A DNA stretch of 23,822 bases, from the IMG/VR virus record IMGVR_UViG_2671180283_000029, positions 1-23,822 of that record; one strand, given 5' to 3'. Both the position numbers and the translations under genes were made by a program. Origin of the DNA: a virus (Duplodnaviria > Heunggongvirae > Uroviricota > Caudoviricetes). Positions 14,331 to 17,805 of this stretch are shown one piece after another. How positions within the stretch are numbered: the stretch's first letter is position 1; each line of letters opens with the position of its first letter. Below the pieces are notes generated by a model, which worked only from the letters and a program-made list of their open reading frames with translations, made no database searches and was not told the origin of the DNA.

Positions 14331-15026
14331 CTAACCAAATCTGTTTATGTTGAATGGTACTGATGAGATCACTTTAGACTGGATATAAAGCAGAGCTAAC
14401 CCCTCTTTTTCGATGCTCCATGGTTGATAATTGGGGTTATCAGATAACACCATGATTTTGCTTCCAATTTTTTGAAGCCTTTTCACGTAGCATTCTCCAT
14501 CAAAACAAAATGCATAAATACCATCGCCATCAAAATAAGTTACTGTCTTATCAAGAAAAAGAAGGTCGCCAGGTGAGATTGTGGGAGCCATACTGTCTCC
14601 TCTGGCGTTACCTATTTCTATATTTTTGAATGCCCGATTCCCAACAAGACGTCGGGCATATTCAGGATCAAGTTCTATTGAGCGCACTACATCTATCAAG
14701 TCACCACGGACATGAGTTCCATCACCGCAACTAAACTCAACATCAAGGACATTAAACACGACACTATCTGTTCTTGTCTGGTGTTTCTCTTGCGAGGAAA
14801 AGGTTGGTGAGGAGTCTTCACCTAAGAACCAGGATTGTGGATAACCGCTAATCTCTGATAAATGCGCGAGCTTATCACTCCGTGGAAATGTTTTTCCTGT
14901 TGTCCAGTACTGCACTGATTGCGCACTCACACCTAACTTGCGGGCCAGTTGAGCCTGAGTCCATCCTTTTGCTTTCAGCATCGCGGCTATTCGATTTTCC
15001 GTGTTTTTGACGTTCTTCATGACCAA
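14331..15026 (-). CDS. cI: CI-type prophage repressor (HTH_XRE plus S24 LexA-like peptidase), 231 aa
   Basis: N-terminal HTH (KGWTQAQLARKLGVSAQSVQYWTTGKTFP); C-terminal S24 signature with GDSM serine and VKRL lysine; divergent from the cro-like gene. Confidence 0.85.
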   Translation of the reverse strand: MVMKNVKNTENRIAAMLKAKGWTQAQLARKLGVSAQSVQYWTTGKTFPRSDKLAHLSEISGYPQSWFLGEDSSPTFSSQEKHQTRTDSVVFNVLDVEFSCGDGTHVRGDLIDVVRSIELDPEYARRLVGNRAFKNIEIGNARGDSMAPTISPGDLLFLDKTVTYFDGDGIYAFCFDGECYVKRLQKIGSKIMVLSDNPNYQPWSIEKEGLALLYIQSKVISSVPFNINRFG

Positions 15027-15153: not shown

Positions 15154-15444
15154 ATGGAAGGAAATGATTACGACAAACTTCGTGCATTAATTGCGCAAAA
15201 TGCCATAGCGCGAAATCTTGGTGTGACGCCGCAAGCGGTGAATCAGTGGTTTTCAAAAAGCACAATTCCTGCTCGTTTCGTTTTACGAGTATGTGAAGTA
15301 GTTGCATGGAAGGTTACACCTCATGGCTTAAGGCCAGATCTTTATCCTCACCCTGAAGATGGAATTCCTAACTTGTTACGCAAAAGCCTAAATCCAAGTT
15401 CACCACACAGAGCGGATGGAATACACGCAGGAGATAAACAATGA
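15154..15444 (+). CDS. Cro-like (YdaS-type) HTH regulator, 96 aa
   Basis: Position divergent from cI; HTH-like segment ARNLGVTPQAVNQWFSKSTIP; stop overlaps the next ATG (ATGA). Confidence 0.55.
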   Translation: MEGNDYDKLRALIAQNAIARNLGVTPQAVNQWFSKSTIPARFVLRVCEVVAWKVTPHGLRPDLYPHPEDGIPNLLRKSLNPSSPHRADGIHAGDKQ

Positions 15445-16148
15445 ACACCGCAATTTTTAACGGCAAAGCATCCATGACCAGCGTTGAGATCGCAGAGCTG
15501 GTGGGAAGCCGACCAGATAGTGTTAAGAGAACTATTGAAACACTGGCTAAAAAGGGAATCATCCAATTTCCACAGACTGTGGAAATTGAGAATAAACAAT
15601 CACTTGGGCCTCGCCGATTTTCTAGCGCGTATGTATTCGAAGGTGAACGAGGTAAGCGCGACAGCATCATTGTCGTCGCACAGCTCTGTCCTGAATTCAC
15701 TGCTCGCCTGGTAGATCGCTGGCGCGAACTGGAAGAACAGATCCGTAAGCCAATGAGCGAAATCGAAATGGTTGCCGCGATGGCTCTTGAAGCAGTTCGT
15801 CAGCAGAAACGGATCACTCAGGTGGAAGAAAAAGTCAGCCACGTTGCTGAAACAGTCGAGCAAATTAAAAAGGGCACTATTCGTGAGGGCTATGCCGGAT
15901 ATCGCCAACTGAAAGCAAAAACCGGTTTGTCAGATGATAAATGCCGCAATCTGGTGAACGCCTATCAGATTCCTACAGACACCCATGAGTTCATGACGCC
16001 GGACGGATTGTTGTCACGTCGCGCAATTGTTGCTGTGGAACCGTTTATGGCTGCTTTTTATCGGGTTATGGAGGAAGCAGAACCGCGAGGGACTCGCTGG
16101 TATCACCCGAAAATGGGGTTATTTCAGGTTATTGGTTGGCAGCGGTGA
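15441..16148 (+). CDS. Rha-family phage regulatory protein (235 aa), in the cII map position
   Basis: N-terminal SVEIAELVGSRPDSVKRTIETL and later YVFEGERGKRDSIIVVAQLCPEFTARLVDRWRELE fit the pattern I recall for the Phage_pRha domain; translationally coupled to cro. Confidence 0.5.
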   Translation: MNTAIFNGKASMTSVEIAELVGSRPDSVKRTIETLAKKGIIQFPQTVEIENKQSLGPRRFSSAYVFEGERGKRDSIIVVAQLCPEFTARLVDRWRELEEQIRKPMSEIEMVAAMALEAVRQQKRITQVEEKVSHVAETVEQIKKGTIREGYAGYRQLKAKTGLSDDKCRNLVNAYQIPTDTHEFMTPDGLLSRRAIVAVEPFMAAFYRVMEEAEPRGTRWYHPKMGLFQVIGWQR

Positions 16149-16256
16149 AAAAAAGCCGGGAGTAACCCGGCTCACTCAACATCAATAACGGGGAGCTGTT
16201 TCGCATAAAACGGCTCCGAAACATCCAAGAACAGTTCTAAAGATATCAGCAGCTAT

Positions 16257-16919
16257 ATGATCATTTCAAGACCAAATATTGATTCTGCAATTTCGGGACG
16301 TTACACTGTCTCCGCACCTTATAAAGCGGGTGCCGGGGGTCGCAGCCCGGAATTGTCAACGGCGATATATGACGCGCCAGCGTCTTTTTTATCGTCCGCG
16401 CTCACGCACGCCAGAATTATGGTGGGCTGGGCAGGGGAGCCGAAAGGCTCGCCGGTCTCCGTTGACGCCGGTACTGCGAACCCTGTTCAGTCTGCCACCA
16501 GTGAGTTTCGCAGCTCCGGTGGTGGAAGTTTTCCACAGTCAACGGAGGCTGCCATCATGGCTACTGTCCCAACTTCCCCATACCTGAAAATTGAAGTTGT
16601 CAACGGCAAGGCCGTTATTTTCTCCCTGCATGTTGCCTGCCACTTTAAGCGAATGCACCAGAACATCGTTGACAAAATCGAGTATCTGAACTGCTCACGC
16701 GAGTTTTTTACCCGCAATTTCATACCGGGTACTTATCACATCTACGGTGACTCCCTGCGTGGTTATTACATCACCCTTGATGGTCTGATGATGCTTCAGC
16801 TTGGGTTAAGTCTGCGCACAATGCGGTACTACGAGAGCTGTATTGAAGCATTCCATGAGGCTGAAACCGTCCAGGGTCACTCCGCGTTCCGTCGTAATCA
16901 ACGGGAGGTGCACCTATGA
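16257..16919 (+). CDS. Rha-domain protein with Gly/Ala/Pro/Ser-rich N-terminal extension, paralog 1 (220 aa)
   Basis: Segment KIEVVNGKAVIFSLHVACHFKRMHQNIVDKIE ... YYITLDGLMMLQLGLSLRTMRYYESCIEAFHEAE matches the Rha-domain pattern; ~90-aa low-complexity N-terminus; no SD before the 16257 ATG, so the start is uncertain. Confidence 0.55.
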   Translation: MIISRPNIDSAISGRYTVSAPYKAGAGGRSPELSTAIYDAPASFLSSALTHARIMVGWAGEPKGSPVSVDAGTANPVQSATSEFRSSGGGSFPQSTEAAIMATVPTSPYLKIEVVNGKAVIFSLHVACHFKRMHQNIVDKIEYLNCSREFFTRNFIPGTYHIYGDSLRGYYITLDGLMMLQLGLSLRTMRYYESCIEAFHEAETVQGHSAFRRNQREVHL

Positions 16920-17590
16920 TCCGCCACCAGCTTATTGATTCTGCAATTTCGGGACGGTACACTGTCCAAGCACCTTATAAAGCGGGTGCCGGGATTGGCG
17001 TCCTGGAAATGTTATCGGCGATATATGACGCGCCAGCGTCTTTTTTATCGTCTGCGTCTGCGCACACCCAAATTATGGTGGGCTGGACGGGGGCACCGAA
17101 AGGTGCGCCGGTTTCCGATAACGCCGGTTACGCCAACCCCGTTCAGTTCACCACCAGCGAAATTGGCGTTTCCGGTGGTGAAGGTAATTCACTGTTATCG
17201 GAGGCTGCCATCATGGCTACAGTCCCAACTTCCCCATACCTCAAAATCGAAGTCGTCAACGGCAAGGCCGTTATTTTCTCTTTGCATGTTGCCTGTCATT
17301 TCAAGCGCATGCACCAGAACATCGTCGACAAAATCGAGTATCTGAACTGCTCGCGTGAATTCTTCTCCCGTAATTTCATTCCGGGTACTTACCACGTGTA
17401 TGGCGATTCCTTGCGTGGTTATTACATCACTCTTGATGGCCTGATGATGCTTCAGCTTGGGTTAAGTCTGCGCACAATGCGGTACTACGAGAGCTGCATT
17501 GAGGCATTCCATGAAGCTGAAACCAGCCTGAATCATACAGCTTTCCGCTGTAATCAATGGGAGGTGCGCCCATGATTCGCCGCCTCGTTA
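16277..17590. repeat. tandem direct duplication (~660 bp x 2) spanning the two Rha-like paralogs
   Basis: Copy 1 (from ~16277) and copy 2 (from ~16933) align colinearly with high identity, including the downstream SD-ATGA junction (GGGAGGTGCACCTATGA vs GGGAGGTGCGCCCATGA). Confidence 0.8.
16916..17575 (+). CDS. Rha-domain protein with low-complexity N-terminal extension, paralog 2 (219 aa)
   Basis: Same architecture as paralog 1; GGGAGG SD; ATGA overlap with paralog 1. Confidence 0.55.
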   Translation: MIRHQLIDSAISGRYTVQAPYKAGAGIGVLEMLSAIYDAPASFLSSASAHTQIMVGWTGAPKGAPVSDNAGYANPVQFTTSEIGVSGGEGNSLLSEAAIMATVPTSPYLKIEVVNGKAVIFSLHVACHFKRMHQNIVDKIEYLNCSREFFSRNFIPGTYHVYGDSLRGYYITLDGLMMLQLGLSLRTMRYYESCIEAFHEAETSLNHTAFRCNQWEVRP

Positions 17591-17805
17591 ATTCTCTGTA
17601 TCACCGATACAACCGTTGCCCCCGTGTGGGGCAGTGGTTCGCCACCAGCGACGGTCGCGTTCTGCGGGTTTGCCTGGTCAGCACCGAAAGCCAGAAAGTT
17701 GTGTGTGAATTACTGGGGCGTAACTACACCATCAGTTACCCACTAGTGGCGTTTCAGTCCGGAAAAATGTTTAAACGCCTGGGAGGTGGCTATGCGTCCG
17801 TCTGA
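17572..17805 (+). CDS. hypothetical small protein (77 aa)
   Basis: ATG at 17572 with GGGAGG SD, overlapping the stop of Rha paralog 2; the track's longer version starts at 17557. Confidence 0.4.
   Translation: MIRRLVNSLYHRYNRCPRVGQWFATSDGRVLRVCLVSTESQKVVCELLGRNYTISYPLVAFQSGKMFKRLGGGYASV

Follow-up and report, generated by a model that had tools for sequence, protein, structure and literature searches.

In a viral DNA stretch of 23,822 nucleotides (the window; Caudoviricetes, IMG/VR record IMGVR_UViG_2671180283_000029), two copies of a direct repeat lie head to tail, with a Rha/Ant-like gene near cro on one side and the replication genes on the other. The question raised by this locus is what the variable 5' part of each copy encodes. 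An earlier note on the window had read the copies as a recent tandem duplication of Rha-domain genes with low-complexity N-terminal extensions. According to the present analysis, the repeat is likely (probability roughly 0.78) a pair of P1-type antisense-RNA switches rather than of protein extensions. The system itself is of a known kind, and the novelty is the tandem arrangement of two. All features described below are on the + strand.

The repeat units and their genes

As seen in the repeat search and pairwise alignment, a whole cassette is repeated with a period of 656 bp, unit 1 occupying 16277..16932 and unit 2 16933..17588. The repeat search matched 16277-16576 to 16933-17232 at 82%, and in the full pairwise alignment the homology spans ~16277/16933 to ~16928/17584; the ~660-bp direct repeat noticed earlier is thereby upheld. 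The SD-ATGA junction is nearly identical at the two unit ends (GGGAGGTGCACCTATGA at 16903-16919, GGGAGGTGCGCCCATGA at 17559-17575), as had been stated, and the copies do diverge mainly at the 5' end, with identities of 79.8% in the leader and 87.5% in the ORF and most of the divergence in the 5' 280 nt. The worry that the duplication might be an assembly artefact can be set aside, because the copies are too diverged (12-20%, or 15-20% counted as differing positions) and the two-copy layout recurs in independent records, namely NZ_CP050998.1 (100%), NZ_CP148357.1 (99.8%), and phage PPyecE_EH1910 LC567835.1 (95%). In the host genome record, three places match the cassette sequence.

From 5' to 3', each unit is composed of a promoter-like element, an IsrK-like leader with its terminator, a C4 antisense RNA, an SD/ATG, and a Rha-domain ORF. 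The isrK and C4 matches exceed the Rfam gathering score in both units, in identical order and register, and such pairs of matches were also found in related arrays. The promoter-like elements (TTGATT, 17 nt, TACACT) are located at 16279..16307 in unit 1, ending 7 nt 5' of IsrK, and in the same register at 16935..16963 in unit 2. Their match of 8/12 is below the scan threshold of 9/12; promoter-like hexamers are aligned at the equivalent position in diverged lineages, and the TTGATT/TACACT elements may act as promoters.

The IsrK-like leader sRNA of unit 1 lies at 16314..16390 (Rfam RF01394, 58.7 bits against a gathering score of 50) and contains a1 (16341-16346), b1 (16355-16362), and an intrinsic terminator hairpin (16371-16384) followed by a U-run. 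Its counterpart in unit 2 lies at 16970..17046 (RF01394, 63.7 bits against 50), with a1 at 16995-17001, b1 at 17011-17018, and the hairpin and U-run from 17027-17040. A terminator scan placed a Rho-independent terminator, GACGCGCCAGCGTC then U6, at the 3' end of IsrK in both units. Across 90 distinct related modules the IsrK structure is 88% paired, and 9 of its 18 pairs are compensatory. The C4-type antisense RNA follows at 16415..16502 in unit 1 (Rfam RF01695, 78.8 bits against 45) and at 17071..17158 in unit 2 (82.8 bits against 45), both matches being full-length (1-87/87). It folds as two inner hairpins enclosed by a long stem; 2416/2424 cells are paired over the 90 modules (99.7%), with changes on both sides at 14/27 pairs. 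Of the recognition elements, b' of unit 1 (16457-16466) falls in the loop of hairpin 2 and a' (16474-16480) in the junction, and those of unit 2 are at 17114-17122 (b') and 17130-17136 (a'). The mature C4 of unit 1 probably begins at the A of the AUG at 16419; the C4 of P1 starts with AUGGUGGGG, and the conserved AUGGUGG...CCACC ends are common to P1 and these RNAs.

The ORF of each unit encodes a 120-aa protein consisting of the Rha domain only, at 16557..16919 in unit 1 (MATVPTSPYLKIE...) and 17213..17575 in unit 2. Translated from the ATG at 16557 and 17213, the two products score 30.0 and 30.7 bits with Pfam pRha (PF09669, gathering 29.9) and 37.3 with TIGR02681, under its cut-off of 45.95. 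BLASTP aligned the 120-aa ORF with a canonical pRha protein, itself scoring 107.7 bits, at 39% identity (E=3e-21). For the unit 1 product, PHROG matches include phrog_995 (2.6e-56) and phrog_518 'Rha-like' (4.6e-14), and the AF2 model has a pLDDT of 81; a PDB sequence search with the 120-aa and 181-aa Rha proteins returned nothing useful. By these matches the Rha domain appears borderline but real in both repeat ORFs. The two proteins differ at 10 residues, 8 of which are among the last 17. The variable columns of the ORF are distributed over the codon positions as 20/19/54 (p=3e-6), dN/dS in the Rha core is 0.02, and both ORFs are under purifying selection. The 120-aa protein is probably an antirepressor-like regulator, a role proposed because Ant/Bro-N, AntA, and longer pRha proteins are found behind the same leader elsewhere.

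The gene preceding the repeat (15441..16148, 235 aa) stands outside it at the cII map position, and its start overlaps the cro stop. Its pRha score of 25.6 bits is under the gathering score of 29.9, its best PHROG is phrog_63 'anti-repressor Ant' (3e-46), PGAP calls it a 'Rha family transcriptional regulator', and BLASTP found no similarity between it and the 120-aa ORFs. Thus, of the three consecutive Rha genes proposed earlier, the tandem pair of paralogs holds, with borderline HMM scores, and the first gene belongs only weakly.

Recognition elements and proposed mechanism

Sites complementary to a' and b' follow the C4 RNA in each unit. In unit 1 (16507..16548) they are a2 at 16507-16513 and b2 at 16538-16547, the latter overlapping the Shine-Dalgarno GGAGG at 16544-16548; in unit 2 (17163..17204) they are a2 at 17163-17169 and b2 at 17194-17202, again overlapping the Shine-Dalgarno (17200-17204). 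Exact complements of 6-10 nt are present in both units. In unit 1, b' CUCCGUUGAC is complementary to b1 and to b2, which reads GUCAACGGAG, and a' CUGCGAA to a2 UUCGCAG; in unit 2, b' UCCGAUAAC is complementary to GUUAUCGG(A), and a' ACGCCAA to the UUGGCGU found in a1 as well as a2. The units differ at 2/10 b positions and 3/7 a positions, and each difference is mirrored wherever the element recurs, in all three places, so each C4 RNA should act only on its own cassette. The two cassettes are therefore predicted, from their recognition sequences, to be probably orthogonal with little cross-reaction. Calculated duplexes are 6-7 kcal/mol better for cognate than for non-cognate partners at each site, with two caveats: b' of unit 1 still reaches -11.3 kcal/mol against b2 of unit 2, since the SD part is common to both, and a 9-nt complement of unit 1 b' is present inside the unit 2 ORF (17254-17262).

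The same three-way agreement extends beyond the window. Among the 90 related modules, the a1/a'/a2 set and the b1/b'/b2 set each change together almost without exception, and 13 a-types, 27 b-types, and 42 combinations are represented, a large natural recognition repertoire for a small sample. The earlier suggestion of a diversifying interaction surface was correct in that divergence affects such a surface; the surface is RNA-RNA (the a'/b' loops and two sets of targets), not protein.

These observations can be combined into a mechanism for the antisense switch. Each cassette would be transcribed from its own promoter-like element, and the first 77 nt would form the IsrK-like leader with a1 and b1, ending at the intrinsic terminator. 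A read-through transcript would contain the C4-type RNA, whose exposed a'/b' could pair either with a1/b1 or with the downstream a2/b2, where b2 covers the Shine-Dalgarno of the Rha-domain ORF. We infer that C4 is processed from the operon transcript (RNase P, ~77 nt) and represses translation in trans; by analogy with P1 c4 and P4 CI, it would pair with a2/b2 and block the ORF, and the blocked translation would in turn impose polarity on downstream genes. The short leader RNA, by analogy with IsrK of Gifsy-1, may serve as a decoy for a'/b' and relieve the block. The RNA family matches, the structural covariation, the three-way covariation of elements, the coding signature of the 120-aa ORF, and the old divergence are observed directly.

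The closest known system is immI of P1/P7 (c4, icd, ant1/ant2; RF01695, RF03163), in which promoter, a1, b1, C4, a2, b2 over the RBS, and first ORF occur in the same order. The annotated P1 record has the P2c4/P1c4 promoters, a1 (7 nt), b1 (8 nt), a 77-nt C4, a2, b2, icd, and ant1/2. Spacings in the present units are nearly equal to these, with an a element of 7 nt and a b element of 8-10 nt, and the C4 covariance model scores 79-83 bits here and 68.8 for P1 itself. In P1/P7 heteroimmunity a few bases in a and b set the specificity (PMC6906374, PMC12197685), and the units are predicted to resemble P1/P7 in this as well. Several differences can also be seen. The upstream target region here matches isrK (RF01394), which carries a terminator, in place of c4-a1b1 (RF03163); the product of the first ORF is a 120-aa Rha-domain protein where P1 has Icd; the ORF is followed not by ant1/2 but by a further cassette, or else by orf78 and the replication genes; two tandem cassettes with different predicted specificities are present; and the element, unlike the P1 plasmid prophage, is a lambdoid prophage whose CI is LexA-like. 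The P1-type antisense immunity module is a portable cassette in lambdoid prophages that can be stacked in arrays.

The isrK-orf45(STnc1160)-anrP locus of Gifsy-1 in Salmonella (Hershko-Shalev et al. 2016, PMC4825925) is alike in having an IsrK sRNA that ends at a terminator of its own, a C4-like RNA (STnc1160) in the read-through transcript, an AUG at ~+106/107, pairing of mid-IsrK with the 3' part of the C4 region, and gated translation of a downstream regulator. It differs in its effector, in being a single cassette, and in that orf45 stops on the anrP start (AUGA), whereas the equivalent frame here runs into the Rha ORF. In the published model the emphasis is on activation by IsrK, with no settled role for STnc1160, and the compensatory mutations tested, G28/C162 and G31/C159, were described as helix b-I, not as a1/a' (PMC4825925). 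By position mapping, these mutations appear to lie at or beside the positions matching a1 and a' here. In Gifsy-1 lysogens, transcription of both IsrK and STnc1160 is high under all conditions tested (PMC7067206), IsrK and C4 have been described as structural homologues of P4 seqA and CI (PMC4825925, PMC3632133), and the phage-plasmid N15 is listed among phages with structurally similar systems (PMC3632133).

Satellite P4 (seqA, CI RNA/seqB, seqC) likewise has a processed, leader-derived antisense RNA with complementary sites up- and downstream. In P4, Forti et al. 1999 are said to have found that control is by a translation block, with termination before the replication genes. It has one module and no Rha-domain ORF, and control of replication genes would be by analogy in the present case. 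In N15, the antirepressor operon antA-antB-antC is reportedly controlled by a small processed CA RNA of the C4 class (Ravin et al. 1999); this system differs in being a single module with another effector.

Origin of the array and possible control of neighbouring genes

The claim that the duplication is recent is contradicted by the divergence of the ORFs. Their dS is 0.62, and each is closer to ORFs of other phages (95-98.6% identity for unit 1, 93-96% for unit 2) than to its neighbour, at 87.5%, so the duplication is not recent. Most likely, the array originated by recombination between phages with different cassette alleles rather than by a recent local duplication. Similar sequence was found in 1350/5426 complete E. 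coli genomes. The number of cassettes in relatives is one, two, or three, and arrays of 2-3 are seen in 10 distinct configurations. With one decayed cassette (locus L039) among them, this supports the earlier remark that copies can be gained or lost at the repeat. A query over the junction (16740-17100) matched 145 E. coli genomes, which is not an array count, since non-collinear pieces were joined and single cassettes also reach 80% coverage. A scan of 596 Gb of contigs with the pattern GCCGGTNTCCNNNNNNGCCGGT was too loose, only 6/120 loci being real modules.

A less likely explanation is that the array serves no function of its own and was left neutrally by two heteroimmune phages recombining unequally within the conserved ORF/junction sequence, with one cassette redundant. 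Most relatives have a single cassette, the exact two-cassette layout occurs in only 2/5426 complete E. coli genomes and one phage record, leaders and ORFs are reshuffled among phages, and the decayed cassette agrees with redundancy. Also, no pair within an array shares a b-type (0/12, with 0.074 expected per pair), and this difference is indistinguishable from random assortment. The recurrence of two- and three-cassette arrays in so many configurations, the intactness of both cassettes in every element, and the purifying selection on both ORFs speak against neutrality. A pair of functional antisense switches would provide a testable system for the evolution of RNA-based heteroimmunity and for how prophages of a polylysogen avoid or exploit cross-talk, and the cassettes are a source of candidate orthogonal RNA regulators.

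It is unlikely that the cassettes are mainly a P4-type transcription gate for the replication genes and not a control on Rha. In such a gate, IsrK terminators and C4 polarity would silence orf78-O-DnaC-like-DnaB in the lysogen, and the small ORF would be mostly a translated spacer like P1 icd. The cassettes do stand between cro and the replication genes on the same strand, and from the unit 2 ORF through orf78, O, and the DnaC-like gene to DnaB each stop overlaps the next start. The PGAP CDS orf78 (17572..17805; phrog_1153, 7.5e-41; unknown function) begins on the stop of the unit 2 ORF (ATGA) and ends over the start of O; in 45/85 related loci a homologue comes immediately after the last cassette, with replication genes next where sequence is available. 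Moreover, pairing and transcription termination are described for the homologous seqA-CI-seqC system of P4 (PMC4825925, PMC3632133), and the P1 record annotates icd as 'apparently required for expression of ant'. On the other side, the strong purifying selection on the Rha core indicates that the protein itself matters, and the same leader drives bona fide antirepressor families elsewhere.

Possible translation of the leader

The coding signature is confined to the 120-aa ORF. In the leader, variable columns fall evenly on the codon positions (43/43/41, p=0.97), without codon periodicity, and dN/dS is ~0.9 in the ORF-phase frame, the other two frames giving 0.7 and 1.0. The regional dN/dS values, set against 0.02 in the Rha core, give no sign of protein selection in the leader. 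The Gly/Ala/Pro/Ser-rich N-terminal segment of ~90 aa described earlier coincides with the two Rfam RNA genes of each unit.

Even so, stops are absent from the ORF-phase frame across the leader in 75/90 modules; for the other frames the corresponding numbers are 2 and 29. These units also have the AUG at +106, and from it the reading frame stays open into the Rha ORF, over 166 codons; the same fusion to the ORF is seen in 75/90 modules, and a Gifsy-like stop in only 2. A purely non-coding model leaves the stop-free frame unexplained, so ribosomes may cross the leader, which raises a testable question about translation across structured regulatory RNAs. Multiple-of-3 leader lengths were set aside as evidence of coding, because the C4-to-ATG distance is fixed at ~138 nt by RNA architecture and the length classes represent few independent events.

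One speculative and rather improbable extension is dual use of the leader, as a non-coding IsrK/C4 riboregulator when transcribed from its own promoter and as a translated 'Ash' frame in upstream transcripts, with arrays as a combinatorial RNA immunity code. The own-promoter RNA would silence the Rha ORF and perhaps also the replication genes that follow. On transcripts from the early rightward operon or a preceding cassette, ribosomes would re-initiate at an SD-ATG ~54 nt before the IsrK start and cross IsrK and C4; translation would melt the terminator and antisense RNA, so that lytic transcription could override the gate. If true, competition between the many lambdoid prophages that share an E. 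coli cell may shape the a/b 'barcode' arrays.

That the units simply encode 220- and 219-aa Rha proteins with a diversifying low-complexity N-terminal 'Ash' domain of ~100 residues is very improbable, even though both long ORFs are open, the frame is stop-free in most relatives, Phage_ASH (Pfam PF10554) matches residues 16-108 at 59.8 and 64.7 bits (threshold 26), and PGAP labels both 'ash family protein'. The Ash match overlies exactly the isrK and C4 genes that pass Rfam gathering, where protein-like evolution is absent and RNA pairing accounts for the variation base for base. Literature searches on the Ash family turned up nothing relevant. At least 7 unrelated effector types are preceded by the same 'domain', including the Bro-N, AntA, and Icd-like ORFs of related cassettes and a Tad2-like gene (a leader with the latter, from locus L052, had no match in the phage collection). 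Ash-like leaders match six different PHROGs, leader length is out of frame with the ORF in 13/90 modules, and, according to the Gifsy-1 authors, conservation is seen in the nucleotide sequence but not in the peptide. The two 'ash family protein' genes here are largely translations of IsrK/C4 RNA, the real products being the 120-aa Rha-domain proteins. By extension, the same would apply to PF10554 and several PHROG 'transcriptional regulator' families, affecting thousands of prophage annotations.

Two IsrK-C4-target-ORF cassettes with different recognition sequences

The window is 100% identical to a lambdoid prophage carried by E. coli O39:NM F8704-2 (NZ_CP050998.1). The gene of a LexA-like CI repressor (14331-15026, minus strand) is followed by a Cro/YdaS-like gene (15154-15444), a gene for a 235-aa Rha/Ant-like protein (15441-16148), two repeat units (16277-16932 and 16933-17588), a 78-aa ORF of unknown function (orf78, phrog_1153; 17572-17805) and, in this order, genes for an O-like replication initiator, a DnaC-like loader and DnaB. 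Stops and starts overlap along the unit 2 ORF, orf78, O, the DnaC-like gene and DnaB. A G+C-rich hairpin (16153-16173) lies just past the stop of the 235-aa gene; it obtains an intrinsic-terminator score only on the minus strand, where the T-run is found, and there is no nearby minus-strand gene to its right.

The tandem repeat with 5'-biased divergence described in the earlier note is correct: repeat search and pairwise alignment gave a direct repeat with a period of 656 bp. The same note had read the units as Rha-domain genes with low-complexity N-terminal extensions. The corresponding long ORFs (16257-16919, 220 aa; 16916-17575, 219 aa) are indeed open, and both are labelled 'ash family protein' by PGAP. 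Scanning of the whole window with Rfam at gathering thresholds produced four matches, all inside these extensions: isrK (RF01394; 16314-16390 and 16970-17046) and C4 antisense RNA (RF01695; 16415-16502 and 17071-17158). The Pfam Phage_ASH match, at residues 16-108 of the long ORFs, falls exactly on the two RNAs, and the Rha-domain match is limited to the last ~100 residues. A GGAGG motif and, after 8 nt, an ATG (16557 and 17213) precede 120-aa proteins (MATVPTSPYLKIE...), and one submitter annotated the first copy of phage PPyecE_EH1910 in this short form. The locus holds two complete cassettes of IsrK, C4, targets and ORF, with different recognition sequences.

Substitution patterns were examined in 18 modules of identical geometry. 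Variable columns of the 243-nt leader were distributed over the codon positions as 43/43/41 (p=0.97), whereas those of the 120-codon ORF were distributed as 20/19/54 (p=3e-6). Comparison of units 1 and 2 gave a dN/dS of 0.02 over Rha codons 1-103 and of 0.71 over the 17 codons that end the ORF. The leader value was 0.9 in the ORF frame, with 0.7 and 1.0 for the two alternative frames. For wider comparison, modules were located by nhmmer in 120 IMG/VR loci with the C4 hairpin pattern. Among 90 distinct modules, the C4 consensus structure is 99.7% paired with compensatory double changes in 14 of 27 pairs, and the IsrK structure is 88% paired with compensatory changes in 9 of 18. The protein interpretation of the 5' part was thus not borne out, as RNA genes without a protein-like substitution pattern are located there.

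In the P1 record (NC_005856), the immI region contains the promoters P2c4 (C1-controlled) and P1c4, the targets a1 and b1, the 77-nt C4 RNA, the targets a2 and b2, and then icd and ant1/ant2. The window units share this order of elements with almost equal spacings. Upstream of IsrK, at a distance of 7 nt from its 5' end, lies a promoter-like TTGATT-17-TACACT (16279-16307; 16935-16963). It is followed by a1 (16341-16346 in unit 1; 16995-17001 in unit 2), b1 (16355-16362; 17011-17018) and a terminator hairpin with a U-run (16371-16384; 17027-17040). Within C4, the hairpin-2 loop forms b' (16457-16466; 17114-17122) and the junction forms a' (16474-16480; 17130-17136); downstream are a2 (16507-16513; 17163-17169) and b2, over the Shine-Dalgarno (SD) sequence (16538-16547; 17194-17202). 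The C4 RNA of P1 starts with AUGGUGGGG and ends with CUGCCACC, as do the window copies; by this analogy, the universally conserved AUG at 16419/17075 is most simply taken as the 5' end of mature C4 RNA and its acceptor-like stem. A difference exists upstream, where the target region of P1 matches c4-a1b1 (RF03163), whereas that of the lambdoid modules matches isrK.

The locus belongs to the C4/IsrK antisense immunity modules known from P1, P7, N15, P4 and Gifsy-1. IsrK and C4 have been described as homologues of P4 seqA and CI, and such modules as present in lambdoid prophages (Barquist et al., PMC3632133). The resemblance of IsrK to seqA, and a processed RNA downstream of IsrK, STnc1160, were reported for Gifsy-1 (PMC4825925). 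In the literature searched, no description was found of cassettes of different specificity being stacked, of how broad the a/b repertoire is, of a connection between the module and Rha-domain-only proteins, or of its overlap with the 'Ash' protein family.

Co-variation of recognition elements and origin of the array

Unit 1 carries a = UUCGCAG and b = GUCAACGGAG; unit 2 carries a = UUGGCGU and b = GUUAUCGGA. Within each unit, the changes occur jointly in a1/a'/a2 and in b1/b'/b2, and cognate duplexes are 6-7 kcal/mol better than non-cognate ones at each of the four sites, as energies of isolated segments. Three-way complementarity is near-universal in the 90 distinct modules, which comprise 13 a-types and 27 b-types in 42 combinations. 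Together these comparisons are strong evidence for modular specificity and for pairing of a' and b' with both sets of targets. The supposed diversification between the units is, as judged from sequence, co-variation of RNA recognition elements. Experimental support for pairing of a part of IsrK with the C4 region is offered by Gifsy-1, where IsrK G28A and G31A with the compensating changes C162U and C159U restore the inactive structure; its authors name this pairing helix b-I and do not use the terms a1/a' (PMC4825925). In our own mapping, with IsrK +1 at 16314, the mutated positions fall at or beside a1 and a' of the window units.

The claim that the duplication is recent did not hold. There are 45 differences between the ORFs over 360 nt (dS = 0.62), and each ORF is nearer to ORFs of other phages (95-98.6% identity for unit 1, 93-96% for unit 2) than to its neighbour (87.5%). 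Similarities of leader and ORF are also uncoupled: the ORF of one IMG/VR locus (L076) is 96.4% identical to that of unit 2 with a leader of only 78.6%. Because of this divergence, the closer relatives elsewhere and the uncoupled similarities, the array is best explained by recombination that juxtaposed two diverged cassette alleles. The first four codons of orf78 (ATGATTCGCC) recur at the unit 1/unit 2 junction (ATGATCCGCC) and likely mark the exchange point. The first codons of the 120-aa ORF, ATGGCTAC (Met-Ala-Thr; 16557-16565 and 17213-17221), and the preceding GGAGGCTGCCATC are conserved before unrelated effectors (pRha, Icd-like, 77-aa protein) in the alignment of 90 modules; therefore the portable leader reaches a few codons into the ORF, and the recombination boundary lies inside it.

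A search of 5426 complete E. coli genomes found similar sequence in 1350. A single cassette (match span 1005 bp) is present in most close relatives. In others, unit 1 precedes a different cassette, one with a 183-aa Rha protein, and the exact arrangement of the window was found in two genomes and phage PPyecE_EH1910. At least two cassettes occur in 12 of 85 IMG/VR loci, in 10 distinct configurations. One locus (L018; 9631-11246, minus strand) contains three cassettes with 656-bp spacing and three different a/b types, all confirmed by Rfam; in another (L039; 3128-3797) the first cassette is decayed, its ORF being cut after 24 codons and running into the next leader. Within arrays, a b-type is shared in 0 of 12 pairs and an a-type in 1 of 12; the values expected at random are 0.074 and 0.27. 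Selection for orthogonality would be compatible with such a pattern, but the deviation is not significant.

Effector proteins and proposed regulation

The 120-aa products have borderline Pfam Rha scores and are below the TIGR02681 cut-off; they match phrog_995 and phrog_518, and BLASTP shows them to be clear homologues of canonical pRha proteins (39% identity, E=3e-21). By homology, they are Rha-domain-only proteins. In other phages, the same leader precedes pRha proteins of 181-187 aa, which have an additional C-terminal region, as well as Bro-N antirepressors, an AntA antirepressor, Icd-like peptides of 63-65 aa, a 77-aa protein and a Tad2-like protein. The company kept by its leader suggests that the 120-aa protein is an antirepressor-like regulator.

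A terminator-like hairpin (AACGGCAAGGCCGTT then ATTTTCTC; 16602-16616 and 17258-17272) lies 45 nt inside each 120-aa ORF and is conserved in this ORF type only. It overlaps GTCAACGG, which in both units (16599-16606; 17254-17262, 9 nt) is complementary to the unit 1 b' loop. The hairpin might be a translation-sensitive terminator, or an additional C4 target that weakens orthogonality.

From P1, P4 and Gifsy-1, each cassette would be expected to be transcribed in the lysogen, with most transcripts ending at the IsrK terminator; in Gifsy-1 lysogens, IsrK and STnc1160 are highly expressed in all conditions tested (PMC7067206). On the same models, read-through would yield C4 RNA, which would pair with a2/b2, hide the ribosome-binding site and silence the Rha ORF and its coupled genes, and surplus short IsrK RNA would titrate C4 and turn the cassette on. 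Since a and b differ between the units, the predicted targets of each RNA are limited to its own cassette and to phages, incoming or co-resident, of the same a/b type. With two stacked cassettes, the effectors of a wider range of rival phages could be silenced. Alternatively, stacking could keep at least one Rha protein copy out of reach of silencing by a co-resident prophage. A P4-like gating of the replication genes is a serious additional possibility, because genes overlap from the unit 2 ORF to DnaB and because orf78 directly follows the last cassette in 45 of 85 related loci, regardless of effector type.

The stop-free frame of the leader

Stop codons are absent from the whole leader (16314-16556 and 16970-17212 in the window) in the ORF-phase frame of 75 of the 90 modules, compared with 2 and 29 for the other frames, and this bias coexists with a leader lacking a protein-like substitution pattern or codon periodicity. 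First-order resampling of the unit 1 leader gave ~13% stop-free sequences per frame. Among 38 representatives with less than 90% leader identity, the stop-free frames number 35/7/14 in the IsrK part and 30/7/19 in the C4-to-ATG part. One frame has fixed stop triplets within conserved motifs, which accounts for part of the bias but not for the difference between the remaining two. In many modules, an in-frame SD-ATG lies ~54 nt before IsrK begins and overlaps the preceding gene's stop codon, an arrangement also seen at 16916. In Gifsy-1, orf45 starts from the C4 AUG, is translated and is required for effector expression; its nucleotide sequence is conserved and its peptide is not (PMC4825925). 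In 75 of 90 modules the corresponding frame does not stop at the effector start but continues into the effector ORF. Ribosomes may thus cross the leader on some transcripts, and the 'Ash' frame, which is this ORF-phase frame, may not be simply spurious.

Pfam PF10554 (the 'Ash' protein family) and six PHROGs described as 'transcriptional regulator' or unknown (3960, 995, 821, 6928, 29966 and 4908) all match the translated IsrK+C4 leader (16257-16556; 16916-17212), which precedes at least seven unrelated effector types. Probably PF10554 and these six PHROG families represent an RNA element in translated form; genes annotated as 'ash family protein' may have mis-called starts.

A Gifsy-1-like geometry, with a 46-codon ORF from the C4 AUG, was seen in two IMG/VR loci (L052, 5725-6018; L119, 4120-4325), where the stop codon of this ORF begins 5 nt downstream of the ATG of the next. 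The module with this effector gene had no match in the phage collection. Its product is an 85-aa protein matching Pfam Tad2-like (Thoeris anti-defence 2) with 31.6 bits against a threshold of 25.
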